From: Myxococcales bacterium
GTDB lineage: Bacteria > Myxococcota > UBA727 > JABDBI01
Assembly (NCBI GenBank): GCA_023248595.1
Contig: JAHFEG010000002.1
Coordinates: 51,825-115,824, forward strand
Length of the DNA: 64,000 nt
Direction of reading: 5' to 3'
The notes beneath the pieces were generated by a model. That model had not been told where the DNA came from, searched no databases, and saw only the letters and a list, made by a program, of their open reading frames with translations. Below, in pieces: positions 2,405-57,747 of the stretch (its first letter is position 1; every line of letters begins with the position of its first letter). Made by a program: the position numbers and the translations under genes.

Positions 2405-2475
2405 TTTCAGCCTCTTGAAACACTAAGATCCAGTGCAATTAATTATCGATGTGATATTTGTCACCGAGGTGATTC

Positions 2476-5400
2476 ATGACTATTCATCTAGGAAAAGGTA
2501 ATTACATCAATGGCCAGTTTATTAATTCTGGCGAAAAAGAAATTATCAGTATCAATCCCGCTTCTTACTTTTCGCCCGTTTTTAAAAGCATAACATCAGT
2601 TGCTCATGTCGACACAGCAGTCAAATCTGCAAACCTTGCGCTGCGGTATTGGTCTTCTTTAGACACAAATGATCGCATCAGCTTTTTAATGCGCCTCAAA
2701 GAAGCTTTCGTCAAAAAAGAAAAACAGATGGCCCATGCGATTACCAGCGAAATGGGCAAAATTTTAAGTGAAAGTTTATCGGAAGCAAAAAATTTAAGTG
2801 CACGCATCGAGCTTATGGCTAACCAAGGTATCAAGCGTGTTGCAAACGAAAAACCACCGGGTATTTTAGGGGAAACACGCTACCACGCTCAAGGTGTCCT
2901 CTCTATTTTAGGACCTTATAATTTTCCTGCCCATCTTGTGAATGCCCATGTCATTCCAGCGCTGATAACCGGCAATACCGTCGTCGTTAAATTTAGCGAG
3001 ATTTGCCCATGGGTGGGAGAAATTTATGCTGAATGCATCCATGAAGCCAATTTTCCTGCTGGTGTTTTTAATTTGGTACAAGGTGGAGCAGATATTGGTA
3101 AAGCTTTAGCGAAACATCCTTTAATTCGTGGCATTTTATTTACAGGAAGTTACGCCACAGGTCGTTCTTTAGCCGAATCTGTCCTCGATGAACCACATAA
3201 AATTTTAGCTTTAGAAATGGGTGGCAAAAACATTGCCGTGGTTTTAAAAGATGCCGACCTCTACCAAGCTCTAGCAGAAATTAGCCAAGGCGCTTTTTTA
3301 ACAACTGGCCAACGATGCACAGCAACCAGCCATGTTCTGGTAGATAAAACCATCGCTAGTCGCTTTATTAATTCTCTCGTTGCCATCACCAAAAGTTTAA
3401 AACCCGGCGACCCAACACATGCAAAAACTATTTTTGGTCCCCTGGCAAGCCAAGAAGCCAGAAATCGGTTCAGTGGTCTTTTAAAAAATGCGACTACTTC
3501 TTGTGAAGTTTTAGTAAAAAGCCAAATGTTCGATGGGGGCGCTTTTGTTACCCCATCTCTTCACCTATTAAACGCTAAAAAAGCGCCTGGCTACCTCGAT
3601 ACCGAGCTTTTTGGACCAGACGTCTGCATTGAAATCATCGACGGCATTGAAGAGGCCATTGAGCGTACCAACCAAAGTGCGTATGGTTTATCCAATGCTG
3701 TTTTTACTGCAAAAAAATCGGCATTTGAACAATATTACCAACAAACACGCTCTGGTGTTTTAAATTGGAACAGAAGCACCAATGGCGCCTATGGAGAACA
3801 GCCATTTGGTGGCGTGGGTAAAAGTGGAAACCAGCGCGCAGCTGGCATCGACGCTGTTCGCTATACGACCTTTCCTGTCGCTGTAAACTATTTAGAATAT
3901 GGCCAAACGCAGTTACCTTTCAACATGGTCACTTTACTCGAAAAAGAAAAAAAGAACCTTGATATTCCTTTCTCAACACTAGTCACACGTCATGCCCTAG
4001 AAGAAATGTTGGAAAATTATCAGATTCCTATCGAAGACGTGCGTGGCGCATCCATATTGCTACCATTGCATTTCATCAAAAAGCTTTCTTTTCAAAATAA
4101 ACCAATTGATGAAATACATCTTATCGAATCATTGAAACCTTACGTTAGCCTAGAAGAAAAAAATTGGATCATTACCCTTCCTGAAGCAGAATATCTAAAC
4201 ATATTTTTAGATATCATGGATGCTTTTTTAAAAAAGTTACATAATGAAAATTTCGTCCATTTAATTCAACCTATTGCCTCTGAAATTCATATCCCAACTT
4301 CTGAAAAATTGCCGCGTTCAGCAGCAATGCTCCGTCGGCTTTATCGCAATGATTTTTTGCCCAAGGAAAAGAAAAATCCTGTTATCGACCTACGTACTTC
4401 GAAGGGCCCTTATCTAGCATCTATCGATGAGGATCCGCTGGTGATTTTTGATGCAGCCAGCCAAATTGCTTCACTGGGATTAGGCTTTCAAGCAGATCCC
4501 TATCTCAAAGCGCTAACCGAAGACAACTTAACAGCATGCCTGTTAGCCAATCAAGAAGACACGCCAGAATCTAAAATATGGATTGAAAAATATTCTCAAT
4601 TGTTGTTGCAACAAACTAGCCCAAAAATGAGCCATGTCAATTTCACGTCTGCAGGCGCAGAAGCAAATGAAAAAGCATTTGATCTTTGCCGGCTAAACGG
4701 ACCTGGTGGACGCCGAATCATTGCTTTTCAAGGTAGTTTTCATGGCCGTACATTGATGGCCTTGCAGGCAACTTATAATCCCCAAAAGCGGGCTCAGTTT
4801 GAGTTCACAGGTCACCAAGCCACCTTCATTCCCTTTCCCAAACGCCCAAATTTTGAAGAGGATCCTGAAATCACCGACGAATGGGTTGCTTGCTGGTCAA
4901 GGGCTGAGAGCCCTTACGTGCCACCTGATGACCTGTTGCTGCGATCTGAAATTCAGTCTCTCGAATGCCTTAAAAGCGAAATTGAAAAAGGAAACATTTG
5001 TGCTGTCATCATTGAACCCATGCAATGTGAAGGCGGTGACAATTATGCCACAGCTCGTTTTTTTAATGGCCTTCGTGCTTTGACGCGTGCCCTTCAAGTA
5101 CCGCTCATTTTTGACGAGGTCCAAACAGGGTTTGGCCTGCTTGGTCCTTTTTATGCTCATAGCGCATTTAAACTGCGCGATGCTCATGGCAACTTAGACG
5201 GACCCGACTGCATAACGCTTGCAAAAAAAGCACAACTCGGCGTCTGTTTATCAAATTGGCCAGATACCAGACCTGCGACAGCACATATTTCACAAATTAT
5301 GAGAGGATATTTGCAAGCCCAAGCGATACTGGACAGAAAATTGTTTTCACCTCATCTGAAGACAGAGATAGAAAAAAAAATCGGAATTTTAAAACAGAAA

Positions 5401-7428
5401 TTTCCTAGCTTTGTTTTTAATTTACGCCATCAGGCATATGCTTTTGCCTTTGATCTTCCATCTCACAATCATGCCATGCAACTCGTCAACCAACGCTTCT
5501 ATCGTGGTTTCATGGTTTATATTGCTGGTGAAAAGACCGTGCGTTTTCGTTTTAATCTGTCAACAACAATCAAAGAATTAAACGTCTTTTTTGAAAACCT
5601 AAGTCAAGCTTTGCATTTTTTAAGTGACCACCAAAATGAGACTGCTCCCAATTGGATAGTGCCTTCACCAAAGCCCCTAGTAAAAACATTTTCAATTGAA
5701 GAACAAACAAACGAAGACCTGTTTACGATTGAAGTTTTGACACAGGATTTATGGTCTTCCTACCAAGATCAAATCAAAAATTTAGAAGACGCGACTTATG
5801 AACTAAATCGTCGCGATTCAATGAATTTTTTACATGAATTTATTGCGCAAAAAGATGGGCTTGGTCTGATACTCACGCAACAATCCACAGAAGGTAATCG
5901 AATTTTAGGCTTTGCCATTGGCGGACCACTTGAACACAGCCAAATAGATGGGCCTTGGCAAGATAAAATGAGAGATCACTGTAATACTTTTTATTCTGCT
6001 AATATTGTCGTCAGTCAAGAATTGCGAAAGCAAGGTTTTGGATTCAAATTAAAATCTGCGCAAATTCACCACGTGCGATCCATGAAAAAACCAGATGGTG
6101 CTTATCGCTATGATTTTATGACAGGTCGCAATCGTGTCGGTTTCACACCGGAGATTAGCCGTATTAATCAATTTTTTGGTGCGCAGACTGTCGATATTTA
6201 CCATCGTCAGTATGGTGAGGCTAACGCTGAAGCGCTTTATTATCGAATCCCTTTAAGAAAGCCTCAGCTCGTCTGCATCAAAGGCACAGATTCAAGTTCT
6301 CCTCAAATCATCGATTGGTCTGCTTCTATTCAAGCACCCTTAGGGTCCTGTTCTCCAGAAATACTAAAAGAGATTATAAATGGCGCTTTTACCTCGGTAG
6401 TCGGCACCAAACTCACACTCTCCAATTGGGTTACACCTAGCATTGTTCGCTATACTGAGCTTCTAAGGCAGCTCGCGCCGAATTCTTGTCAACATGCCTA
6501 TTTTACATCTGGTCGAGACGAAGTTGTCGATAAAGGCCTTCGAGCATTAAGAGTCCACAGGCCTGCTGGCGATGTCGTGATTGGATTACAGCGCCAGTAT
6601 GTTGGACATACCACTGCTGCAGCGAGAAGTTTAAGTGATGAAAATAATTACCAAAGTCCTTTTGCCTGGTTTGATTGGCCAAAAGTTCAACATCCAGTTG
6701 AAACGAGCGACGAGACAAGCTTAGCAGAAATCAGAAGCCAAATCAGTCATTATTCCTCAGAACGGATCTTGGGAATCGCCGTTGAGCTCATTGGAGAAAA
6801 AAGTGGCTACGTTGTTTCAAATAATTTTTTAGATGGCTTAAATCAAATTCGGCAAGAAACGTCTATTCCATTGATTTTTGTTGAAACAGCCTCGGCCTTA
6901 GGTCGAAGCGGTAGCACAATTTTTAAAAGCGACAGCCTCATGGTTAAACCTAACATGGTTTGGTGGTATGCTGGTGCTCAACTGGGACATGTATTCGTCG
7001 ATCATGACTACTACGTATCCACACCGCTCACACTTATTTCTACCTGGGATGGTGATGAAATATCAATGAAGCGTACCTATCAACATTTGCGCGTTGCTCA
7101 TGAATGTCTCAAAACCAAACATGCTGCTTACTTCGAAAATCTACTTTCCCAAATGGATTGGTCTTGGCGACGACATGGCCAAGGACTATGGCATGTACTT
7201 ACCATGAAAAATCAAGAACAATGTCAAGAAGTCTTAAAAAAGGCCGCTGCTCTCGGTTTACAATTAGGCAAAAGCGGCAATCATCGTATTGTCATTAATC
7301 CTCCTATTAATGTATCTAAAGAAGAAATGCATCGTGGACTTGAGATTTTCAACCATGCAATATCCCAAACCTCCTATACTCGAACTAGACAGCACACACC
7401 CTCGCCTCTGTGGACAGATTCATGGTGA
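2476..7428 (+). CDS. 1650-aa multidomain enzyme: AstD-like aldehyde dehydrogenase, class-III PLP aminotransferase, GNAT N-acetyltransferase, and a second aminotransferase-like fold without the Schiff-base Lys
   Basis: Aldehyde dehydrogenase motifs: GPYNFPAHLVNAHVIPALITGNTVVVK, LEMGGKN and the catalytic Cys in GQRCTATSH. Aminotransferase 1: AGAEANEKAF, IIAFQGSFHGRTL, LIFDEVQTGFG and the Lys in TLAKKAQLG. GNAT motif A: ELRKQGFGFKL. Second aminotransferase-like fold: LIFVETASALGRSGS, with AGAQLG where the PLP-Lys is expected. Confidence 0.7.
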   Translation: MTIHLGKGNYINGQFINSGEKEIISINPASYFSPVFKSITSVAHVDTAVKSANLALRYWSSLDTNDRISFLMRLKEAFVKKEKQMAHAITSEMGKILSESLSEAKNLSARIELMANQGIKRVANEKPPGILGETRYHAQGVLSILGPYNFPAHLVNAHVIPALITGNTVVVKFSEICPWVGEIYAECIHEANFPAGVFNLVQGGADIGKALAKHPLIRGILFTGSYATGRSLAESVLDEPHKILALEMGGKNIAVVLKDADLYQALAEISQGAFLTTGQRCTATSHVLVDKTIASRFINSLVAITKSLKPGDPTHAKTIFGPLASQEARNRFSGLLKNATTSCEVLVKSQMFDGGAFVTPSLHLLNAKKAPGYLDTELFGPDVCIEIIDGIEEAIERTNQSAYGLSNAVFTAKKSAFEQYYQQTRSGVLNWNRSTNGAYGEQPFGGVGKSGNQRAAGIDAVRYTTFPVAVNYLEYGQTQLPFNMVTLLEKEKKNLDIPFSTLVTRHALEEMLENYQIPIEDVRGASILLPLHFIKKLSFQNKPIDEIHLIESLKPYVSLEEKNWIITLPEAEYLNIFLDIMDAFLKKLHNENFVHLIQPIASEIHIPTSEKLPRSAAMLRRLYRNDFLPKEKKNPVIDLRTSKGPYLASIDEDPLVIFDAASQIASLGLGFQADPYLKALTEDNLTACLLANQEDTPESKIWIEKYSQLLLQQTSPKMSHVNFTSAGAEANEKAFDLCRLNGPGGRRIIAFQGSFHGRTLMALQATYNPQKRAQFEFTGHQATFIPFPKRPNFEEDPEITDEWVACWSRAESPYVPPDDLLLRSEIQSLECLKSEIEKGNICAVIIEPMQCEGGDNYATARFFNGLRALTRALQVPLIFDEVQTGFGLLGPFYAHSAFKLRDAHGNLDGPDCITLAKKAQLGVCLSNWPDTRPATAHISQIMRGYLQAQAILDRKLFSPHLKTEIEKKIGILKQKFPSFVFNLRHQAYAFAFDLPSHNHAMQLVNQRFYRGFMVYIAGEKTVRFRFNLSTTIKELNVFFENLSQALHFLSDHQNETAPNWIVPSPKPLVKTFSIEEQTNEDLFTIEVLTQDLWSSYQDQIKNLEDATYELNRRDSMNFLHEFIAQKDGLGLILTQQSTEGNRILGFAIGGPLEHSQIDGPWQDKMRDHCNTFYSANIVVSQELRKQGFGFKLKSAQIHHVRSMKKPDGAYRYDFMTGRNRVGFTPEISRINQFFGAQTVDIYHRQYGEANAEALYYRIPLRKPQLVCIKGTDSSSPQIIDWSASIQAPLGSCSPEILKEIINGAFTSVVGTKLTLSNWVTPSIVRYTELLRQLAPNSCQHAYFTSGRDEVVDKGLRALRVHRPAGDVVIGLQRQYVGHTTAAARSLSDENNYQSPFAWFDWPKVQHPVETSDETSLAEIRSQISHYSSERILGIAVELIGEKSGYVVSNNFLDGLNQIRQETSIPLIFVETASALGRSGSTIFKSDSLMVKPNMVWWYAGAQLGHVFVDHDYYVSTPLTLISTWDGDEISMKRTYQHLRVAHECLKTKHAAYFENLLSQMDWSWRRHGQGLWHVLTMKNQEQCQEVLKKAAALGLQLGKSGNHRIVINPPINVSKEEMHRGLEIFNHAISQTSYTRTRQHTPSPLWTDSW

Positions 7429-8419
7429 ATCGCTACGCAATCAGGTACGAACCATGGCACAGATTCGCCTTGATCTCACGTGTCAAGAAACCGCCTTTTT
7501 TTCCAAAGAACAAGTTCTGAAAATTGCCAGGGCCCATCTGCCTATCTTAAAGAATTTTGATGAAGATCTTTATTTGGAATTGTTAGGTATTGCAGAAGGA
7601 AGTCGGCTTACTCCCGAAGAGATTGTGGTCCTTAATCACTACACAGACCTTCGCGATTTAAATCCAAGCAATAATCATCCCGATAGTGATGACACAAAAG
7701 GTTGTTCCGTTATTTATACCAAAGCACCAAGCGGTCCTTTGCTTGGACAAACTTGGGATATCGACAGCTCTGCAATCAATCATGTGGTGATTTTAAAAAT
7801 AAAAAATATTGAAAATAGCACATTGCTCTTCAGCTGCGCAGGCTGTCTGGGCATGACAGGGATGAATACAAATGCTGTAGGAATTTGTATCAACAATCTA
7901 AACAGCACCGATGCGCAAATTGGAATCCTCTGGCCTGCCCTTGTCCGAAAAGTCCTCAAACAATCAAGTGCTCAATTGGGACGCGATCTGATTTTAAGAG
8001 CCCCGCTTGGTTCTGGTCATCACTATTGCGTTGCAGATACAAAAGATTTTTTTGGTATTGAAACCAGCGGAACCAAAAAGAAAATAACCCAACAGGGAAG
8101 TCAAAAAACACATTTCCATACCAATCATTGTCTTGATGAAGAGATGAAATTAACCCACACCGTCAAATCCACCTCCACGACGTTTTCACGCTACCAAGAA
8201 CTGGAACACCGACTCCCTCATACAACTCTTTCTTCCGCGGAAGATATCTATGAACTCCTAGGCCATGTATCGATTGCTCCAAAACCAGAAACGACTGGCA
8301 CTGCAACCTGCGGCGCGCTCGTCATGGATTTAAAAGCACAAACAGCCCTGGCCTGCATGGGACCACCTTCTCAAAATATTTTTAATAATCTACCTCTGCA
8401 TTTGAGTTTAGCGAGATGA
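7355..8419 (+). CDS. Peptidase C45 / acyl-CoA:6-APA acyltransferase-like Ntn hydrolase
   Basis: N-terminal ...LELDSTHPRLCGQIHGESL... is followed by a Gly-Cys self-processing site (DTKGCSVIYTK) typical of C45 Ntn hydrolases. The start is uncertain: the ORF begins at 7289 in another frame and overlaps the upstream gene. 7355 is the first Met preceding the conserved region. Confidence 0.5.
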   Translation: MQYPKPPILELDSTHPRLCGQIHGESLRNQVRTMAQIRLDLTCQETAFFSKEQVLKIARAHLPILKNFDEDLYLELLGIAEGSRLTPEEIVVLNHYTDLRDLNPSNNHPDSDDTKGCSVIYTKAPSGPLLGQTWDIDSSAINHVVILKIKNIENSTLLFSCAGCLGMTGMNTNAVGICINNLNSTDAQIGILWPALVRKVLKQSSAQLGRDLILRAPLGSGHHYCVADTKDFFGIETSGTKKKITQQGSQKTHFHTNHCLDEEMKLTHTVKSTSTTFSRYQELEHRLPHTTLSSAEDIYELLGHVSIAPKPETTGTATCGALVMDLKAQTALACMGPPSQNIFNNLPLHLSLAR

Positions 8420-9753
8420 ATTTAAACAACCCTCCTGCCTTAGATTCACCGTTAGAAAGACAGCGAAAACATGTCTTTTTTCCGTGGTCAAAACAAAATT
8501 CGGCCAAGCCTTTTCATATTATCGAAGCGAAAGGTGTTCATCTTACTTTATTAGATGGTTCGCAAGTTTTAGATTTTAATAGTTCTGTCTTTAATGCCAA
8601 TTTGGGACATCAACATCCAGGCATGCAAACCGCCATGATAGAAGCTGCCAAACATGCTTGCGTCACCCACCCTGCCCTTATTCACGAAGAAAAAATCAAA
8701 CTAGGCGAAAATCTCGCACGTATTACTCCCGGTAAACCCTACGAAGGGCTCGTCAAAAGTTTTTTTTGCTTAGGCGGTGCTGAAGCCAATGAAAATGCCA
8801 TTAAAATGGCTCGACTCGTTACAGGTCGTCAGAAAATCGTCACACGATATCGCAGCTACCACGGTGCAACTTTAGCAATGATTGGTTACAGTGGCGATTA
8901 CAGACGCATTCCCTTCGATGGAACAGTTAACGGTGTCATTCGCATACCAGATCCTTATCCTCGTGGATCAGGACAAAGCATCGACACCATTCGTTTGCTC
9001 GAAGAGATTTTAGAAATTGAAGGCCCAGAGACTGTTGCCTGTATCCTTTTAGAAGGCGTCACTGGGGCCAATGGTGTCTTTATCCCTCCGCCAGATTACT
9101 GGACACGTATTCGACAAATTTGCGATAAATACGGAATTATTCTCATTGCCGATGAAGTTATGTCTGGATTTGGTCGAACTGGAAAATGGTTTGGCATTGA
9201 TCACTTTGGAGTCGAACCAGATATCATGACCATGGCCAAAGGTCTCACGGCAGGCTATGCACCATTGGGCGCCGTCATCGTCACAGACAAAATTGCGCAG
9301 CATTTCGAAAATGAAACATTGTGGTGCGGCCTAACCAATTATGGCCATCCCTTTTCATGTGCCATCGCTAACGCCGCTATTTCAATATATGAACAAGAAA
9401 ATTGGATCGACAATGCCGCCAAACGGGGCGACGAGCTAGCGCAATTATTGCAAGCACTCAAAAATAATAATGCCTACGTCGCCGAAGTTCGTTCTATTGG
9501 CCTTTTGGCCGCTATCGATTTGCGTAAAGGTCCTCATGATGAAAGACCTTATGTATCTTATCGAGCCCAAGGTGAAGAAGCTGAAAAAGCGCAAGCACTA
9601 CAAAGTGCTTTGCTGAGCGCCGGTGTCTATTGCACTGTTCGTTTTGGAACATTGATTCTTGCTCCACCTCTTTGCGTCACGGCTGAAGAATTAAAGCAGG
9701 GAATAGATATCATTTCTTCTGTTCTTGGTAAAATCCTATCCTCTAACGCTTAA
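8416..9753 (+). CDS. Class-III PLP-dependent aminotransferase
   Basis: Motifs LGGAEANENAIKMAR, YRSYHGATLA, LIADEVMSGFGRTGKWFG and TMAKGLTAGY (the Schiff-base Lys). An ATGA overlap couples it to the upstream gene. Confidence 0.8.
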   Translation: MNLNNPPALDSPLERQRKHVFFPWSKQNSAKPFHIIEAKGVHLTLLDGSQVLDFNSSVFNANLGHQHPGMQTAMIEAAKHACVTHPALIHEEKIKLGENLARITPGKPYEGLVKSFFCLGGAEANENAIKMARLVTGRQKIVTRYRSYHGATLAMIGYSGDYRRIPFDGTVNGVIRIPDPYPRGSGQSIDTIRLLEEILEIEGPETVACILLEGVTGANGVFIPPPDYWTRIRQICDKYGIILIADEVMSGFGRTGKWFGIDHFGVEPDIMTMAKGLTAGYAPLGAVIVTDKIAQHFENETLWCGLTNYGHPFSCAIANAAISIYEQENWIDNAAKRGDELAQLLQALKNNNAYVAEVRSIGLLAAIDLRKGPHDERPYVSYRAQGEEAEKAQALQSALLSAGVYCTVRFGTLILAPPLCVTAEELKQGIDIISSVLGKILSSNA

Positions 9754-49694: not shown

Positions 49695-52600
49695 ATGATA
49701 GCCGCAATGCGCTATTTTTTTTTAATCAAGACATGGATCTGGATGGTGGTTTTTTGCTGGGCCTCACACCCTCTTATTGCTAATCCAGTTTTGGATATTC
49801 TAAATCAATCGATTCCAGACCTCGTCCTTAAAATCATTCATGAAAACATTAACGGACATATTCAAGTTCAAAAGGTGACGTTCTCTGCACCTTCTACGCT
49901 CATTTTTGATCAGCTCCAGTTAAAAGATCACCAGCAACAAACTGTGGTTAGTATTAAAAAAGTGACCCTTGATCTTTCTTTGCTATCCTTATTGATTGGA
50001 AAAATAAAAGCGGCTTCTATTATAGCCGAGAATCCTGATTTCCATCTGGAAACAAATGAAGGGGAACTCAATCTTTCTAAAATTTTTTCAAAAATTTCCA
50101 CAAAAAAAACAGACACGCTGCTTCCTCTCATCGATTTAAGCCATATTCAAATTAACAACGGCCGTGTGACGTGGATCGACGAGGGAAATACTAAATTTTT
50201 TTTTGATAAAATTTTCAGTTCTGGACAGATTAAGTTAGCGCCCCAAGGTGCTGAAATCCACGTTATGTCCTTAAAAAGTCGACAAGGAAATTTCTCTTTT
50301 GAACAAAAGAAATGGAACATTCAGGAATTGGTTTTGGAGAATGCATTTTACAAGAATCAACTTTTAAAATTTAAAAATCTAACGGCCAAATTACTTGATA
50401 CCCCCATTCAAGCTCAAGGCAGCATCTACTTTCAAGGACAGCGCTTTTTAATCAAGTCCCAAATAGGACCCCTCGAAATTTTTGACTTGTCCGTCAAAAA
50501 AACCCTATTAGATTTAGAAATTGACACCAAACTTGTTTTGCTCAAAAAAGCGAGCCTGGAATTAAATGACAGTGCAACCATTTGGGCACAAGGCACACTT
50601 GACTTAAATACGAATGCCTTAAAAATAAATTCTAAAATAAATCGATTATCCTTTAACACTTTAAGAAAAACACTAAATCTTGACATAGGGGCGGACGCTC
50701 ATCTGTCGGGACAGGTAGACGCATCGGGTATTATTTCTGACAATAATCCCATCCAAATTAAGGCAAACACAGATGTCGATAATTTAACCGCGCATGATTT
50801 CCAATTGCCATCTTCTAGGCTTGCCTTGGATCTTCTTTTTACACCACGAAAAAATATAAAATTGATTAAAGCAAGTTTAAATGGAAGTGCTTTCAGTTTA
50901 AGCCTTACTGGCAATATTGATTTAGAAACCAAAAACAGAACCATCGCTTTCGATCTAGATGCCCAAAATCCACACCTTTTTTACAGTAAAATACCTGAAG
51001 ATATCTTAGCAAAAGGATTTCACGCAACGGGTCAACTCGCAGGCTCTCCTCAAGAATTATCGCTTCAGGCGCAATTGCAATTAGATGCATTCCAAAAAGA
51101 CACGACCTTTGGTAAAAATTTGTCCGCTGCACTCCATATCAACCAGCACACCATCTCTCTTAAAAATATAACCGGAACACTGGCTGCAGGGCATGTTCAA
51201 GGAAATGTATTTATCGATAGAAAAAATAATAAAGCTATCTCCGGTGGGCTTCAATTGAGTGATGCCTCTTTCAATCAAATACCAATTCCAGCATCGCTAC
51301 GTTCGCAGATCAGCGGCAATATTCATTCTCAAATCAGCATCTCAGGAAATTTACAACAGCCCAAATTACAAGCAAAAACCCAATTCTTAAACGTTCATCT
51401 GCAGAATTTATTTTTTCAAAAAATTGAGACCAGACTGACCTATTTCGATCATCAAATCCAATTGAACGGACTAGAAGCTCATATGCCGTATGGCGACATC
51501 AGTGCACCTCTCATAACCATCAATTTACTTAAAAAAAGCATCCAAGGCTTGCTCGTCGTGCATCACTTATCGCTTCAAGAGATACCGCAATTGAGCAAAT
51601 ACGACGTTATGGGTATTGCCTCAGGTTCACTGCAAATAAGCAACAATTTTGATCAACCAAAAATTGAAGGATATTTAAGCTTAAAAAATGTCACCTGGAA
51701 AAAACAAGAAATTGGAAACGGCAGAACTTTTATCTGGTATCAGCCTAGTCAAAATCCATTTTTACAATTGAGCGGTGAACTGAAGCAAGAAGATGCCTTA
51801 ATTCTTTATCGTTCAACAATTGATATTGCTCATGAAAAAATTCGCGCAGAAATTACCTTGAAAGATATCTCCATATTACCGTGGGCATCGCTACCCTCCT
51901 CCTTCACCATGCCCCTTAAAGGAAAAATTTCTGGGGAATTACAAATTAATGGTTCACTCAGTTTGCCCAACATTAAAACCCAAATTATTTCCTCTGATAT
52001 TCAATATCAAGAAAATATCACAAGCGATTACCCTGTACCGCGCCTAGAAAAGCAATGGGTATCCGCAGGACCCCTTCTCTTGTCTGCTGAAACCAAAAAT
52101 GGACAAATTACCGCTTCTTTATGCGCATTTCCTCAAAATTTTTCGCAGGTCACGTGCACAAAAGATGACCGCTTGCATCTCACTATCAACGGTTTTTTGA
52201 CTTCGTTGCATGATTATGATTTACAAGTAGATGGCACATTCAATCTCAAAAAGCTTGAACAATGGATTCGCTTTATTAAAAAAGAATTTAATTCAGTTGA
52301 TGCAAGTTTCAAAATTCATACTCGCCTGACTCAAAAAACACAGCAAAAAAGGCTCACATTTAATGGCCAAGCAGACTTCGCATCTCTTTTTATTGCAATG
52401 CCGGGCTTGGTGCCAGTTACCATAAAACAAGAGGCAAAAATTCAGTTTGACAATCATGGCATTCAATTTCTTTCTCCTGCTCTTTTATCTCTGGCAACAG
52501 GTCAATTATCTATCAGTGGTTTTGCTTTTGATTCGCAACTAAAATTAGATTTAAGCGGCCGCATACCGCTCGTTTTTACTAAATATTTTATACCTTTTTT

Positions 52601-53858
52601 TACATCAGCTGATGGTCTTGCCACAGGAGAATTAAAACTCCGAGGCTCATTTAAAAACCCCTTTATTGATGGACACATAACCCCAGACAAAGGCGCTTTT
52701 ATCAAGCCAAGTGTCATTTTCGATGACATTGTTTTTAATAGTGGCCAAATTAATTTTAAGAGTAATGAATCTCACAAAACTCTTTCTGTTTGGTTTGACA
52801 AACTTGATATGATGGTCGGTGATGGGCACGCCCACTTAAATGGAAAAGCCACGCTACATACACAATATCAGCCTAATTCAAATCGTTTTGCTTTCTGGGA
52901 TTTGCAATTGCAAGGCAATGAAATTGTTTTAAGGAACCAAAGAGATTGGATAGAAACAAATTTTAATGTCTTGCTTCACACAAGTGATAAAAAAGACACT
53001 CTTTCTGGAAAACTCAATATTAGCGATGGCTATTTATTTAAAAAATTCTCCTTTCAAAATTTTATTTTATCTTCTGATAAGACAAATACCTTCGAACTAC
53101 CCAAATGGCTGTGGCCTGTCCAAGTTGATATGAAAATTGCAGCCTCTTCGTTTCATGCCCAGACACAAATGTCTGCATTCTTCATTGATAGTCAGTTGAC
53201 AGCAAACTTCGATTTGATTGGCACTTTAGCCTCGCCCAGACTAATTGGCTCCATGGATATAGTCGAAGGAATTTTTAAATTTCCATTACTTTATTTTGAA
53301 ATCCCATCAACATCTATACCATTTAAAAATACACCAGGCCGCTTTGTTGATCCACAAATCCGCATCTTCGCTTATGCTGATTTACCTCACAAGCGTTTTA
53401 ATTTATCAGACGACACCTCTGTCGAATTAAGCCTGATGGGTAATCTTGAACAAATGAAATTGGACATTAAAACGCTCTCTGGAGATAAAACGTTTGATCG
53501 CAATAGACTACTTTTATTGTTGCTGGGAGCCAGTAATGGCGGAACTGAAATGCTGGAAGAAATGCTTTCATCTTATACCGGAACACGTATTTTAATTAGC
53601 AGCGCACTACAAACAGAAGGGGTTGCCACTCAGGTGCAGTGGCAGCTAAATCCCAGACTAGAGTTTGAGGGAACGGCAAAAACAACTGCTGCAAACGTTA
53701 ATTTGCAAGATCTTAAATTAAAATTAATGCTTTTTGATCATCTGCCTTTTGGCCATCAACTTTTCTTAGAAAGCGTTCTTTTCTCACCTGCTACAGAAGG
53801 ATCTGATACGAATATAAAAGAAGATCTTCGACTAAAATTTAGAGTATTAGAACAATGA
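49695..53858 (+). CDS. tamB: TamB/AsmA-like translocation-and-assembly module protein
   Basis: It has an N-terminal signal anchor (FFLIKTWIWMVVFCWASHP). About 1300 aa of beta-rich repeats with (I/L)xGx(I/L)xL periodicity follow, then a DUF490-like C-terminus. Its stop overlaps the start of the Omp85 gene. Confidence 0.55.
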   Translation: MIAAMRYFFLIKTWIWMVVFCWASHPLIANPVLDILNQSIPDLVLKIIHENINGHIQVQKVTFSAPSTLIFDQLQLKDHQQQTVVSIKKVTLDLSLLSLLIGKIKAASIIAENPDFHLETNEGELNLSKIFSKISTKKTDTLLPLIDLSHIQINNGRVTWIDEGNTKFFFDKIFSSGQIKLAPQGAEIHVMSLKSRQGNFSFEQKKWNIQELVLENAFYKNQLLKFKNLTAKLLDTPIQAQGSIYFQGQRFLIKSQIGPLEIFDLSVKKTLLDLEIDTKLVLLKKASLELNDSATIWAQGTLDLNTNALKINSKINRLSFNTLRKTLNLDIGADAHLSGQVDASGIISDNNPIQIKANTDVDNLTAHDFQLPSSRLALDLLFTPRKNIKLIKASLNGSAFSLSLTGNIDLETKNRTIAFDLDAQNPHLFYSKIPEDILAKGFHATGQLAGSPQELSLQAQLQLDAFQKDTTFGKNLSAALHINQHTISLKNITGTLAAGHVQGNVFIDRKNNKAISGGLQLSDASFNQIPIPASLRSQISGNIHSQISISGNLQQPKLQAKTQFLNVHLQNLFFQKIETRLTYFDHQIQLNGLEAHMPYGDISAPLITINLLKKSIQGLLVVHHLSLQEIPQLSKYDVMGIASGSLQISNNFDQPKIEGYLSLKNVTWKKQEIGNGRTFIWYQPSQNPFLQLSGELKQEDALILYRSTIDIAHEKIRAEITLKDISILPWASLPSSFTMPLKGKISGELQINGSLSLPNIKTQIISSDIQYQENITSDYPVPRLEKQWVSAGPLLLSAETKNGQITASLCAFPQNFSQVTCTKDDRLHLTINGFLTSLHDYDLQVDGTFNLKKLEQWIRFIKKEFNSVDASFKIHTRLTQKTQQKRLTFNGQADFASLFIAMPGLVPVTIKQEAKIQFDNHGIQFLSPALLSLATGQLSISGFAFDSQLKLDLSGRIPLVFTKYFIPFFTSADGLATGELKLRGSFKNPFIDGHITPDKGAFIKPSVIFDDIVFNSGQINFKSNESHKTLSVWFDKLDMMVGDGHAHLNGKATLHTQYQPNSNRFAFWDLQLQGNEIVLRNQRDWIETNFNVLLHTSDKKDTLSGKLNISDGYLFKKFSFQNFILSSDKTNTFELPKWLWPVQVDMKIAASSFHAQTQMSAFFIDSQLTANFDLIGTLASPRLIGSMDIVEGIFKFPLLYFEIPSTSIPFKNTPGRFVDPQIRIFAYADLPHKRFNLSDDTSVELSLMGNLEQMKLDIKTLSGDKTFDRNRLLLLLLGASNGGTEMLEEMLSSYTGTRILISSALQTEGVATQVQWQLNPRLEFEGTAKTTAANVNLQDLKLKLMLFDHLPFGHQLFLESVLFSPATEGSDTNIKEDLRLKFRVLEQ

Positions 53859-56800
53859 TACGATTGTTACTGCCAGCGATTTTTGCTGGATGTCTATCAA
53901 TTGCAGCAAATTCGACACCTGCTGATCCAAATTCTGCATTGATTACCAACATAGAAGCGATCGTAAACCTGCCGATCGATAACAATGAAAACAACGAATT
54001 GGTTCACTACTTAGCAGCATTACTGCAAAATAAAGCAGATAGTCATGCTCTTGCATTAGCAAGGAATCGTCTAGAAATCCTTAAGATATATAAAAAAATA
54101 TCCTGCGATTTCAAAAGCCATTCAGGTCAAACTACATTGTTATGCCAGCTTGAACGAATCCCAATCATCAGAAAAATTATTATTCAAAACTTACCCGTCA
54201 TCTTGCTTGAAAAGGATTTACGTAAACGATTATCAATTGAAACTGGCGAACCTTTTGATATTGATACTACAGATAGCGATATACAAATGTATCAAATACA
54301 AAAAACTGTCACATCGTTCTTGGAAAGACAAGGATATTTTGATGCCAAAGTAACCGTTGATTACAAATCCATCATCAACACCTCCACTCTAGATATCCTT
54401 ATAAATATCGAAACTGGCTCATTTCGCCGTGTTAACCGCGTGACTTTGTCACCGAGCATTACCTTTGAACAAGCTAAGATAAGAGGAATGTTTCAAAACA
54501 TGTGTCGCTACTTTCGTTATACTTTTGAAGCTATCGGTATGGGAGGTTTCAATTGTTATTCTCGTGAAAGAGAAAGAGATACCATACAAGATTTACAAAT
54601 TTTACTAGACGAAAAAGGCTACAATACAGCCTCTATATTGACACAAAAAACCATTTTAGATCCACTCGATTCAAATACACCTAAAAAATGCAGAGCCACA
54701 CGCCAAGATTTAAATAAATTGAAAAAAAATGGGATTAAACCACCCTCGCGGTGCCTAAATATGCATGTAACTGTTGATTTGGGGCCTCAAATCATTACCG
54801 AATTTGTTTTTGATAAAGCACAAACACTCACTCTTTCGCCTACAGAAATATTTTTCAGAAATTTCTTTACTGTCGAGTTTTTCTCAAGATTTCTGAATGC
54901 TTCTTTTACAGGTGCAAGCTGGCCTGCCGATGAAACGATTCTTGTCAATGAACTGAGAAATGCCCTTACTTTTTCTACTTCACACAAAATTGATGAAAAA
55001 GAGATTGCTTATTCTGTGGAAAACATAAAATCTATCTTAGCCAAAAGAGGCTACACGCTCGCAAACGTCAAAACTGAGCAAGATAATATACATGATAAGA
55101 TTATCTCTATCAAATTTTTTATCATGGCTAAAAATCCTTTAGCTGTCACTAAAATTTTCTTTGTTGGTGATCCTATTTTTTCGAATCATAAAATTTTAAA
55201 AGAAGTTTCTTTATCGCTTTTACCTCGCTCTGCTTTTCATTCTGGACATTTTAACAACGTTTTACTTGCCGCTGATACAGAGAAAATAAAATATTTCTAT
55301 ATAAATCGAGGCTATCATGATGTTCAAATTAAGACAGAAAGCAGAGTAGAGACCGACGGCGTACACATATGGTACCAAATTATTCCAGGTCAAAAATACA
55401 CAATTCAAGAACTCGTTATTGAAAATAGCCACCCCGAATTATTACCGCAAATACTGCCTTTGCTATCTAACTGCCAACAGGCCAAAAACAGTCCAATTAA
55501 ACCACTAAAATCAACAGATATCTGCACAAAAAGCCCGTATTTACCTCAGTTTATTGTTGATGATGAAAATCGCATTCTTGATGTCTACCGTTCCAATGGC
55601 TATCTTCATACAAAAGTAAAAACAAAAGTTGTCAAAAATGGATTCAACGCTCTATTGGTTTTTTATCTAAATCCACCTGAAGAAAATCAGCAGACATACG
55701 TCAAGGGAATCCTAATTGATGGTAACACTGTCACGCGAAGTTCAGCCATGATAAGACAGTTAGGAACTCCTTTATTTCTACCAGACACAATTCTTAATTT
55801 GCCTAAATTAGAAGAAGGAGTTGCCAGACTTAGGCAAACCAACCTGTATTCGCGCATCAATTACCGTTACCTAAATGAAAATAAAGATAGCACCTACATC
55901 TTACTTTCCGTTGTAGAAAAGCCTTCTTTAACAATTGATTTATCCCTTAGCTTTAGTACCGACAACCTCTTCTCTCTGGGTGGCGAAATCCATGAATCCA
56001 ATTTATTTGGAAACATGTTACAACTGACAAGCGAAATTGATTTAGGTTTATTCTGGGGTCGAAAAAGCAACATTAAAAATACCTTTCGATGGCCTTGGAT
56101 TTACGGCTTACCACTTAATTTTGAATTAGTCGTTCCTCAAATTATTTACACAAAAAATCCAACCAGAGATCCGCCGGAACGCCATTTGTTAGCGCAAGTA
56201 ATTGCCAGTTTGGAGTGGCAACTTTCTTCCACCCTCTACCCTTACATGAAATATGAAACCCGTTGGGATAAATGGCAGCAGCAATATGAACCTTCTCAGT
56301 CCAATCCGAATTTTATCAATATTTTTAAAAATTGGGATGGACTTTTGTTTGTTTGGGAAGAATCAGCCACGGTACGAAGTGTGTTAACACCTGGTGTCAA
56401 CTATATGAATGTTGATCATCCTTTTAATCCCAAGCGGGGCTTAAAGCTTAATTTGTCAACTGATCTTAGTTTCTCGTTATTGGGCGCCCAAATTCCTTTC
56501 CAAATTGTAAATGCCCAAATGGCCCATTATTTTACGGCCGGCCCTTTTACTTTTGCTTCTCAGCTAATTTTCCGTCGTGCTTTTATTGAAAATCCAGATT
56601 CTACATGGTGGGTTTTAAAATATCAATCTGATATGGATTCTATTGGTGGCGATCGCAGTGTTAGAGGCTATCAACCAGGAACCATTGGTATTTGGGGACC
56701 GATGCTGAACAATCGCGACGGAAAAATCCTGCTCGACAAGGACAACAATCCCGTCATGGGTTACCACCCTGGGAATTTAAGTTTACAAGGTAATCTTGAA

Positions 56801-57094
56801 ATTAGATTTCCCATTAAAAAGAGTTTTCTAATTGGCGATCTTGACGGCGCTATTTTCACTGACTTTGCTTTCATTGATAACTGTAAAACCCTCTTTAGTT
56901 GCAACAATCTCAATTCCGTTTGGGAGCAATACAATACTTCTAGCCAGATTGGCTGGTCAGTTGGCTTAGGCCTTCGTTACGTCCTGCCCATAGGACCTAT
57001 TTCCCTGGATTACGCTATCTCTCCCATCAAGCATGCTCCTAATTGGATAGGCCGCGAATCCAGAATTCATCTTCTTTTTGGATATTCATTTTAA
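53855..57094 (+). CDS. Omp85-family outer-membrane protein (BamA/TamA-like), unusually long (1079 aa)
   Basis: It has a signal peptide and POTRA-like repeats. The C-terminal beta-barrel ends in the OMP signature ...RIHLLFGYSF, with a terminal Phe. Confidence 0.6.
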   Translation: MIRLLLPAIFAGCLSIAANSTPADPNSALITNIEAIVNLPIDNNENNELVHYLAALLQNKADSHALALARNRLEILKIYKKISCDFKSHSGQTTLLCQLERIPIIRKIIIQNLPVILLEKDLRKRLSIETGEPFDIDTTDSDIQMYQIQKTVTSFLERQGYFDAKVTVDYKSIINTSTLDILINIETGSFRRVNRVTLSPSITFEQAKIRGMFQNMCRYFRYTFEAIGMGGFNCYSRERERDTIQDLQILLDEKGYNTASILTQKTILDPLDSNTPKKCRATRQDLNKLKKNGIKPPSRCLNMHVTVDLGPQIITEFVFDKAQTLTLSPTEIFFRNFFTVEFFSRFLNASFTGASWPADETILVNELRNALTFSTSHKIDEKEIAYSVENIKSILAKRGYTLANVKTEQDNIHDKIISIKFFIMAKNPLAVTKIFFVGDPIFSNHKILKEVSLSLLPRSAFHSGHFNNVLLAADTEKIKYFYINRGYHDVQIKTESRVETDGVHIWYQIIPGQKYTIQELVIENSHPELLPQILPLLSNCQQAKNSPIKPLKSTDICTKSPYLPQFIVDDENRILDVYRSNGYLHTKVKTKVVKNGFNALLVFYLNPPEENQQTYVKGILIDGNTVTRSSAMIRQLGTPLFLPDTILNLPKLEEGVARLRQTNLYSRINYRYLNENKDSTYILLSVVEKPSLTIDLSLSFSTDNLFSLGGEIHESNLFGNMLQLTSEIDLGLFWGRKSNIKNTFRWPWIYGLPLNFELVVPQIIYTKNPTRDPPERHLLAQVIASLEWQLSSTLYPYMKYETRWDKWQQQYEPSQSNPNFINIFKNWDGLLFVWEESATVRSVLTPGVNYMNVDHPFNPKRGLKLNLSTDLSFSLLGAQIPFQIVNAQMAHYFTAGPFTFASQLIFRRAFIENPDSTWWVLKYQSDMDSIGGDRSVRGYQPGTIGIWGPMLNNRDGKILLDKDNNPVMGYHPGNLSLQGNLEIRFPIKKSFLIGDLDGAIFTDFAFIDNCKTLFSCNNLNSVWEQYNTSSQIGWSVGLGLRYVLPIGPISLDYAISPIKHAPNWIGRESRIHLLFGYSF

Positions 57095-57144: not shown

Positions 57145-57747
57145 ATGATAGATACTAAATTGATTATTGTTGCCTTTATTGCTGTTTTATTTATTTTTAT
57201 CATAGCGGAATTTTTAATCCCTGAAAAATACAGAATGGTATTCAAATACGGATTAAGAAATTGCTCTAGCGTTTTCTATTTTATTGTATTGATTTTTATT
57301 TTCAATGATCGAAATAACGCAAGCATCGCAGAAGCAAGAGATCGTGTAATTAAATTAAATAGTTTTACCAATGATGCCATTATGAATTTATTAAACACAT
57401 TGCGACAAGAACCTAAAGAATTAAAAGGAATTTATAACGAAATTTTTGAAGACAAACCTGAAAATGGCAACCCTTTGACATATCATGAGAACTTATTTTT
57501 ATATCAAGTATTTACAACTTTTTTAAATTTATACCGTGACCATGCTGTCGCAGGAAAAGAAGCCGCTTCTCATTATGCTAATCTATATAGTTCATGGGAT
57601 AATTTTATCATGCGTGTTTTGCGCTCTTCTAAAGTAAGGAAATACTGGAATGATAACAAAAGCATGTTTGACAGTATCGACTTTATCCAATTTATAGACA
57701 ATAAACTGCCAGCGAAAATTTCCACTAATAGAAACTACCCACCATAG
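57145..57747 (+). CDS. Hypothetical membrane-anchored protein (AT-rich gene)
   Basis: 200 aa with two N-terminal hydrophobic helices. It is very AT-rich and has no motifs. Confidence 0.35.
   Translation: MIDTKLIIVAFIAVLFIFIIAEFLIPEKYRMVFKYGLRNCSSVFYFIVLIFIFNDRNNASIAEARDRVIKLNSFTNDAIMNLLNTLRQEPKELKGIYNEIFEDKPENGNPLTYHENLFLYQVFTTFLNLYRDHAVAGKEAASHYANLYSSWDNFIMRVLRSSKVRKYWNDNKSMFDSIDFIQFIDNKLPAKISTNRNYPP

Follow-up and report, generated by a model that had tools for sequence, protein, structure and literature searches.

A 64,000-nucleotide stretch of DNA from a Myxococcales bacterium (contig JAHFEG010000002.1 of assembly GCA_023248595.1; this whole stretch is hereafter the window) contains three linked genes, which encode a giant fusion protein, a proenzyme of the C45 family and a class-III aminotransferase (AT3). 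We propose, with a probability of about 55%, that they constitute a conserved catabolic operon through which a compound with two amino groups is degraded by way of transient N-acyl protection. The giant protein unites an aldehyde dehydrogenase (ALDH), an aminotransferase (AT1), a GNAT acyltransferase and a second domain of aminotransferase type (AT2) in one chain, while the third aminotransferase, AT3, is a separate gene. An earlier reading, made from the letters of this DNA without database searches (the sequence-only reading), had named a fusion enzyme, a GNAT and two or three transaminases here, and this content was confirmed in part. That reading had also treated the three genes as one co-directional operon. 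The open reading frames (ORFs; 2476-7428, 7289-8419 if the longest ORF with its TTG start is taken, and 8416-9753) are indeed real and all lie on the + strand, and the C45 and AT3 genes are coupled by an ATGA at 8416-8419.

The locus was compared with its relatives at several depths. Homologues of the giant protein were collected at E <= 1e-20 (378 proteins), and all of the best 120 of these 378 were large ALDH-aminotransferase fusions. Four syntenic relatives (L001-L004) with 58-77% identity to the giant protein were fetched, and a scan of species-representative genomes gave the best 80 loci. The AT1-AT2 fusion was present in 46 loci (scan loci, individually fetched loci and the window), 43 of which had sufficient downstream DNA. 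In the window and L001-L004 alike, the fusion, C45 and AT3 follow one another in this order on a single strand. The C45 gene was found directly downstream on the same strand in 37 of the 43 loci, AT3 downstream in 33 and a CoA-transferase gene in 29. The usual full order was fusion, C45, AT3, CoA-transferase subunit A and subunit B, and in a Kofleriaceae locus (L086) these five genes each overlap by 4 nucleotides (nt). Among the species representatives, the carriers belonged to Myxococcota, Kofleriaceae, Haliangiales, Sandaracinaceae, Bdellovibrionales and Bradymonadia. Many species retain this order while their identity falls from 77% to about 35%, which supports the view that the three genes act as one functional unit. 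The flanking genes vary by lineage, and therefore the conserved unit consists of these genes only.

The CoA-transferase of the relatives belongs to the PcaIJ/ScoAB 3-oxoacid family, with 261.9 bits for TIGR02429 (cutoff 128.5) and 284.4 bits for TIGR02428 (cutoff 243.55).

Domains and catalytic residues of the encoded enzymes

The public annotation of the giant protein is "aldehyde dehydrogenase family protein" only, and its full-length homologues range from 1409 to 1799 amino acids (aa). Residues were compared in an alignment of 17 homologues for the giant protein and of 14 for C45. In the ALDH domain, the catalytic Glu247 (nt 3214-3216) and Cys281 (nt 3316-3318) were invariant. Its best match in the PDB was succinylglutamate-semialdehyde dehydrogenase (AstD; 4kna, E 8e-77), the next family following at 4e-51. 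The linker behind it is poorly conserved, and it is deleted in the shortest homologues (P0044, P0053, and P0119). In AT1, the lysine that binds pyridoxal phosphate (PLP), Lys917 (nt 5224-5226), and Asp880 (nt 5113-5115) were invariant and align to the corresponding Lys and Asp of pig gamma-aminobutyrate (GABA) aminotransferase. The sequence and fold neighbours of AT1 in the PDB were this enzyme, which is of the eukaryotic type, the lysine epsilon-aminotransferase (LAT) of M. tuberculosis and ArgD, and the domain also matched models of the ArgD/AstC type. With Lys917 and Asp880 intact, AT1 is predicted to be catalytically competent.

The GNAT domain was recognized by its fold, since Pfam Acetyltransf_1 remained below threshold in the window protein (E 0.027, 15.2 bits versus 20.7) and a PDB sequence search with the domain gave no match; the Pfam domain is recorded for several homologues. 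The AlphaFold model of the domain had a mean predicted local distance difference test (pLDDT) of 90, and Foldseek related it with probability 1.0 to the GNAT enzymes RimI, Naa, and ArsN, with TM scores of up to 0.83. Motif A reads R-K-Q-G-F-G at residues 1184-1189 (nt 6025-6042), with an invariant Gly1189. In a subgroup of homologues of 1750-1799 aa (P0024, P0050, and others), about 120 residues are inserted between AT1 and GNAT, at alignment columns of about 1140-1260; the window protein is without this insertion.

The AT2 domain has kept the complete aminotransferase fold and lost the catalytic residues. In all 17 aligned homologues, a tyrosine (Tyr1498) stands in place of the PLP lysine and a valine (Val1469) in place of the aspartate. 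The motif S-T-W-D-G-D at residues 1522-1527 (nt 7039-7056) is invariant in the same 17 sequences, and it aligns residue by residue to the S-T-F-G-G-N of acetylornithine aminotransferase. In the alignment to that enzyme (2eh6), the AT2 segments wy, 'fvetasal', and 'listwdgdeis' stand opposite AK, 'idevqtgi', and 'hgstfggnpla'. From these residues AT2 is predicted to be a pseudo-enzyme domain and, as to function, no third transaminase. The sequence-only reading had counted two or three transaminases in the operon; two active ones (AT1 and AT3) stand, while an active AT2 does not.

In class-III enzymes, the Thr of this motif reaches across to the partner subunit, whose PLP phosphate it binds. The losses in the two domains are complementary: AT2 is without the Lys and Asp and keeps STWDGD, while AT1 keeps the Lys and Asp and is without the conserved Thr. 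Moreover, the AlphaFold model of AT1-GNAT-AT2 (1031 residues) reached a pLDDT of 91.3 and a predicted template modelling score (pTM) of 0.92, which indicates a fixed arrangement between the domains. Because the complementary decay of residues and the pTM of 0.92 fit such a model, AT1 and AT2 probably pair up as an intramolecular pseudo-dimer, with one active site per chain. Foldseek with the 1031-residue model returned single aminotransferase chains only, so that no multidomain precedent was found among the structures. If the model is right, the protein would neatly illustrate how the copies of a tandem duplication can lose complementary functions in an enzyme that is an obligate dimer.

The C45 protein scored above the curated cutoffs of both of its family models, NCBIfam C45_proenzyme NF040521 (152.4 bits, cutoff 85) and Pfam AAT PF03417 (43.4 bits, cutoff 23.2), and the family given to it in the sequence-only reading is therefore secure. 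The Gly-Cys self-processing site noted there was found as TKGCSV at residues 114-119 of 354 (nt 7694-7711), with Gly116-Cys117 (nt 7700-7705) invariant in the 14 homologues. Self-cleavage at Gly116-Cys117 and an amidase or acyltransferase activity are predicted from the family. The best PDB relative was isopenicillin-N acyltransferase (MEROPS C45; 2x1d, E 1e-14), with which the window protein shares the family by curated models, the invariant Gly-Cys site and core residues; this fungal enzyme is distant and serves beta-lactam synthesis, whereas the window protein lies in a putative amine-catabolic operon of a bacterium.

AT3 matched Pfam Aminotran_3 (PF00202) with an E value of 1.7e-90. Its MAKG, ADEV, and GLTNYGHP motifs, which hold the Lys, Asp, and Thr set, were all present, and the PLP lysine is Lys275 (nt 9238-9240). 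The best PDB match was taurine:2-oxoglutarate aminotransferase (6jix, E 6e-84), along with amine and omega transaminases and the structures of PuuE and GabT. Judged by its residues, AT3 is a canonical class-III transaminase of the omega/beta-amino-acid group.

Table 1. Features of the operon in window coordinates, with the basis of each assignment
Feature	Position	Strand	Basis and remarks
Shine-Dalgarno-like GAGGTG	2466..2471	+	Read from the sequence; ends 4 nt before the ATG of the giant gene
Giant fusion gene, 1650 aa (ALDH, linker, AT1, GNAT, AT2, 20-residue read-through tail)	2476..7428	+	ORF
AstD-like NAD(P)-dependent ALDH domain, residues 1-480	2476..3915	+	Pfam Aldedh, E 2.7e-105
Poorly conserved linker, residues 481-599	3916..4272	+	No Pfam/NCBIfam match
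AT1, class-III aminotransferase of GABA aminotransferase/lysine epsilon-aminotransferase type, residues 600-1030	4273..5565	+	Pfam Aminotran_3 (PF00202)
GNAT acyl-CoA N-acyltransferase domain, residues ~1035-1275	5578..6300	+	AlphaFold and Foldseek
AT2, predicted pseudo-enzyme domain of aminotransferase fold, residues 1270-1630	6283..7365	+	Pfam Aminotran_3, E 3.7e-17, profile positions 28-403
Read-through tail of the giant gene	7366..7428	+	CAA at 7366-7368 replaces the TAA of relatives; 19 more codons; TGA at 7426-7428
C45 proenzyme, 354 aa from the conserved ATG	7355..8419	+	Profiles and conserved start; 74-nt overlap with the giant gene
AT3, class-III omega-aminotransferase, 445 aa	8416..9753	+	Profiles; start overlaps the C45 stop

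Candidate pathway and competing readings

From these parts we infer a series of six reactions, the simplest one that gives each part a function and follows the order of the genes. The GNAT domain would first acylate one amino group from an acyl-CoA. AT1, with AT2 as its dead partner, would then turn the remaining terminal amine into an aldehyde, AT1 giving the Lys and Asp and AT2 the trans-acting Thr, and the AstD-like dehydrogenase domain of the same chain would oxidize this aldehyde to a carboxylate. The C45 enzyme, self-cleaved at Gly116-Cys117, would take the acyl group off, and AT3 would transaminate the unmasked amine to an oxo group. In most relatives, finally, the 3-oxoacid CoA-transferase of PcaIJ/ScoAB type would serve to activate the oxo-acid product or, alternatively, to recharge the acid that had been released. 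The known substrates of the nearest relatives fit this order: AstD acts on an N-acyl amino-acid semialdehyde, and the relatives of AT1 (GABA aminotransferase, LAT, and ArgD/AstC) act on terminal amines.

A GNAT domain, a C45 enzyme and transaminases, taken together, are naturally read as a pathway around an N-acylated amino compound, and in this the sequence-only reading was right. Its further suggestion was that such a compound is made here, possibly as a signal, an osmolyte or a siderophore-like product. An N-acyl product could be built by a GNAT domain together with a member of the acyl-CoA:amine acyltransferase family, and transaminases can install amines. However, aldehyde dehydrogenases of the family found here work in the direction of the acid, in a reaction that is effectively irreversible, and an omega-transaminase and a 3-oxoacid CoA-transferase are partners typical of degradation. 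In addition, no synthetase, exporter, receptor or conserved regulator was found beside the genes across the compared loci, whose flanks differ from lineage to lineage. Because the AstD-like ALDH, the omega-transaminase and the CoA-transferase of the relatives all point to catabolism, we favour degradation and regard biosynthesis as quite improbable.

All domains come from known families, and the logic of the catabolic scheme has precedents. The arginine succinyltransferase (AST) pathway of E. coli and Pseudomonas (AstA-AstE) likewise N-acylates its substrate, transaminates the terminal amine, oxidizes the semialdehyde and deacylates the product, and it is AstD and ArgD/AstC-type models that the ALDH and AT1 of the window match. 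The two systems differ in that a generic GNAT stands here in place of AstA and a C45 Ntn-hydrolase in place of the zinc enzyme AstE, AstB is absent, three activities and a pseudo-transaminase are joined on one chain of 1650 aa, and an omega-transaminase (in most relatives also a 3-oxoacid CoA-transferase) is added. The Puu pathway of E. coli, which runs through gamma-glutamyl-putrescine, also masks an amine, oxidizes the other end to an acid, removes the mask and transaminates the resulting omega-amino acid with PuuE, whose structure, like that of GabT, is matched by AT3. It differs from the present scheme in using ATP-dependent gamma-glutamylation rather than an acyl-CoA-dependent GNAT, and an oxidase rather than a transaminase; homologues of PuuA or PuuD are absent here.

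Considering this resemblance, the operon might be a plain variant of arginine/ornithine succinylation, in which the fusion would supply AstA-like, AstC and AstD activities on ornithine, C45 would replace AstE, and the CoA-transferase would recharge succinate to succinyl-CoA. Besides the AstD-like ALDH and the ArgD/AstC matches of AT1, the adjacency of the C45 and CoA-transferase genes in L085, L007, L008, and L033 (in L085 both lie together, 6.5 kb from the fusion) would fit the recycling of a released acid. Nevertheless, the ALDH remained below the AstD cutoffs, and the GNAT is a generic one, with no AstA-type domain (PF04958). The AstA, AstB, and AstE families were found neither in the window locus nor in the syntenic loci, where Aldedh, Aminotran_3, GNAT, and C45 (AAT) were the families present. 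Moreover, AT3, which is among the most constant partners, would be left without a role, as the product, glutamate, needs no omega-transaminase. In several Bdellovibrionota loci from the same genome scan (L041, L043, L045, and others), a stand-alone AstD-like gene lies some 3.6 kb away from one with weak resemblance to aminotransferases, and these loci may be ordinary AST clusters. On balance, the succinylation variant is unlikely.

Among possible substrates of the proposed catabolic operon, beta-lysine appears the most attractive candidate, with ornithine and diamines as alternatives. A beta,omega-diamino acid is attractive because AT3 falls into the omega/beta-amino-acid group and its gene is usually followed by that of a 3-oxoacid CoA-transferase; beta-lysine would fit the latter in particular, since the scheme would then yield 3-oxoadipate, the namesake substrate of PcaIJ. 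A beta-lysine route is known from Pseudomonas B4, where it proceeds via N6-acetyl-beta-lysine and 4-acetamidobutyryl-CoA and includes the activities EC 2.6.1.65 and EC 3.5.1.51. To our knowledge, no genes have been assigned to it. The route calls for the same kinds of activity as the proposed operon, namely an acetyltransferase, two transaminases, 3-oxoacid CoA chemistry, an acetamido deacetylase and a semialdehyde dehydrogenase. It differs from the operon in being known by activities, so that sequences cannot be compared, and the one pointer to beta-lysine in the loci studied here is a neighbouring gene of the KamA family in the closest relatives. In the literature searched, the intermediates of the beta-lysine pathway were not mentioned.

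In one version, the operon would follow this Barker-type pathway itself, with the fused domains carrying out steps that are not consecutive. The GNAT would then produce N6-acetyl-beta-lysine, AT3 would convert it to 3-keto-6-acetamidohexanoate, and the CoA-transferase and a thiolase would lead to 4-acetamidobutyryl-CoA; in the late steps, C45 would release GABA as a deacetylase-thioesterase, and AT1 and the ALDH would be a fused GABA shunt to succinate. This version gives a role to every component, the 3-oxoacid CoA-transferase included. The best structural and sequence matches of AT1 are GABA aminotransferases, AT3 belongs to the omega/beta-amino-acid transaminases, and the one characterized relative of C45, isopenicillin-N acyltransferase, combines amidase with acyl-CoA chemistry. 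Furthermore, the aminomutase gene of the KamA family is found 4 kb downstream of the operon in the window, L001, and L002. On the other hand, the ALDH is much nearer to AstD than to the succinate-semialdehyde dehydrogenases (profile E 1.2e-111 versus 1e-56 for TIGR01780), and no thiolase or cleavage enzyme was seen in the conserved cluster. The linkage of the aminomutase is confined to the immediate clade of the window, and its product is below every equivalog cutoff. Fusing the first step to the last two is also less parsimonious than fusing three consecutive steps. We therefore consider the Barker-type order distinctly unlikely. As for the broader proposal that the operon is the gene set by which beta-lysine, or a different beta,omega-diamino acid, is degraded to 3-oxoadipate (or to GABA), with a single-chain assembly line, a pseudo-heterodimeric transaminase of one active site, and C45 as the missing deacylase, it is speculative and, taken as a whole, doubtful. 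If true, enzyme activities that are orphans so far would gain their genes, and a pathway of lysine catabolism would emerge that is typical of Myxococcota and Bdellovibrionota.

Several observations weigh against the proposed scheme of transient N-acyl protection. The reaction order, the acyl donor and the choice of substrate come from family resemblance only, and hydrolysis by C45 is an assumption, as C45 enzymes such as isopenicillin-N acyltransferase can also be acyltransferases. AstD was the best-scoring family for the ALDH, which nevertheless remained below the cutoffs of both AstD models (351 bits for TIGR03240, cutoff 579.3; 373.7 bits for NF006992, cutoff 514), and AT3 scored 416.7 bits with NCBIfam PRK06062, below the cutoff of 472. 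The putative pseudo-dimer was derived from residue patterns and from the scores of the structure model. As to the gene set, a tblastn search of the 64 kb found no CoA-transferase in the window, whose clade is also without it in the operon. C45 is missing at its position in L012, L013, L016, L036, and L039, an adjacent AT3 is missing in L008, L017, and L035, and the ALDH domain is missing from the fusion in L021, L024 (Enhygromyxa salina SWB005), L031, and L044. The module is thus not rigid.

The literature searched contained nothing on this fusion or on bacterial C45 enzymes in such clusters. In the literature and structures searched, the single chain of ALDH, transaminase, GNAT, and pseudo-transaminase, the presence of C45 in such an operon and the link to a 3-oxoacid CoA-transferase are accordingly undescribed. 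If the catabolic scheme is right, the operon would represent a widespread, unstudied amine-catabolic module of Myxococcota, Bdellovibrionota, and Bradymonadia, lineages that include many predatory bacteria. Besides AST and Puu, it would then offer a third enzymatic way of oxidizing one amine of a diamino compound while avoiding cyclization.

The overlap between the fusion and C45 genes

The sequence-only reading had noted an overlap of 140 nt between the giant gene and C45 (7289-7428) and had raised the possibility of a frameshift that would append C45 to the giant protein. The overlap exists, but not at this length, which assumes the most upstream TTG as the start of C45. The 22 codons of the C45 frame at 7289-7354 have no counterpart in any C45 homologue aligned, and TTG 7289 was rejected as a start for this reason. 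The start common to every close relative is the ATG at 7355, which opens the segment MxYPKPP, so that the true overlap is 74 nt (7355-7428). A later start, the ATG at 7454, is used by the public gene call on this contig (7454-8419, 321 aa). It is also unlikely, as it loses the invariant G-x-x-H-G segment; the call cuts 33 N-terminal residues from C45, apparently to avoid the overlap.

The overlap of 74 nt is itself an exception. In L001, L002, and L003, the giant gene ends in ATA TCC TAA and C45 starts 11 nt before that stop, which gives an overlap of 14 nt (ATGCCATATCCTAA). Tight coupling is the rule among the compared loci, with overlaps of 1, 4 or 14 nt, and the distance from the stop of the fusion to the conserved His codon of C45 was +48 to +63 nt in the tightly coupled loci among the 46. 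The window is the sole locus of the 46 whose fusion ORF runs past this codon (-7). The DNA alignment with L001-L004 located the cause at base 7366, which is C in the window where L001-L003 have T. In the giant frame this substitution turns TAA into CAA (7366-7368), and in the C45 frame it changes CCT to CCC, silently, at the third position of Pro4. Because the TAA stop was removed, the giant ORF is extended by 20 codons to the TGA at 7426-7428. The residues of the tail (QTSYTRTRQHTPSPLWTDSW) are missing in 15 of the 16 other aligned homologues, and in the remaining one (P0005, from L004), CAA is likewise present with a short read-through of 5 residues. Read in the C45 frame, the DNA under the tail encodes the conserved N-terminus MxYPKPP...G-Q-x-H-G.

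If there were a single gene, broken in two by a sequencing frameshift or made continuous by programmed frameshifting within 7289-7428, two frames would also overlap by 74 nt (or by 140 nt with the longest ORF). Against this, the junction aligned to L001-L004 without gaps and with a substitution only, which accounts for the extension, and the relatives stop the giant gene with TAA at an overlap of 14 nt, or overlap by 1-4 nt. No C45 domain (PF03417) was found in any of the 120 listed homologues of the giant protein, of which the longest has 1799 aa. The homologues of C45 stand alone, as proteins of 312-402 aa beginning with MxYPKPP. An assembly error is unlikely because three assemblies (NCBI, ENA ERZ27296333, and Logan SRR14366772) record the identical product of 1650 aa. 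The idea of one frameshifted gene is hardly credible in the light of these data. The overlap is thus real, recent and explained by one substitution, and no frameshift is involved. It has no special function and is a by-product of a silent change in C45 that destroyed the upstream stop; a small lesson is that an upstream gene can grow longer through a silent change in the gene that follows it.

Neighbouring genes and other observations in the window

An Rfam scan of the whole 64-kb window found no family at the gathering score, and hence no tRNA, rRNA or riboswitch, including none upstream of the gcvT-gcvH genes at its left end. Consensus scans for promoters and terminators gave no convincing match and counts not above those of shuffled sequence, and are uninformative on the limits of the operon.

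Directly upstream of the giant gene, the window carries a gene (1361-2404, + strand) with the domains SBP_bac_3, Lig_chan, and Ion_trans_2, that is, a periplasmic-binding-protein domain split by a channel pore. Its product is a prokaryotic ligand-gated channel resembling glutamate receptors, and the gene is kept at this place in L001 and L002, whereas L003 and L004 do not have it upstream. After the operon follow four co-directional genes (9802-13042, + strand), kept in L001-L003 only: an ORF of 295 aa with a hydrophobic N-terminus and one of 134 aa, both without a Pfam match, a HisKA_3 histidine kinase, and a response regulator of GerE/NarL type. The channel gene and the kinase and regulator genes were rejected as members of the operon, being unconserved beyond the closest relatives.

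The gene of the KamA family (13679-14761, - strand) encodes a radical-SAM 2,3-aminomutase of 360 aa. It passes the subfamily model TIGR00238 only; its scores do not reach the cutoffs for EpmB or for the aminomutases of lysine, glutamate, and arginine. A copy with 43% identity lies near a stand-alone AstD-like gene in an unrelated Bdellovibrio locus (L070). As linkage is seen in no loci but the window, L001, L002, and L070, the gene was not accepted as an independent pointer to beta-lysine and is treated as a lead only.

The four loci whose fusion is without the ALDH domain (L021, L024, L031, and L044) have an AT1-(GNAT)-AT2 fusion, C45, AT3, and usually the CoA-transferase, with no ALDH gene in the fetched flanks.

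Towards the right end of the window, two adjacent ORFs of 669 and 1413 aa (57735-63942, - strand) overlap by 44 nt. Both match the Met-zincin DUF4953 profile in one and the same N-terminal portion, and they may be either adjacent paralogues or the two pieces of a split gene. Further to the left, at 49695-57094 on the + strand, a TamB/AsmA-like gene (1387 aa) is followed, with an overlap of 4 nt, by a POTRA/Omp85 gene (1079 aa), and the two look like a TAM-type pair for outer-membrane assembly.

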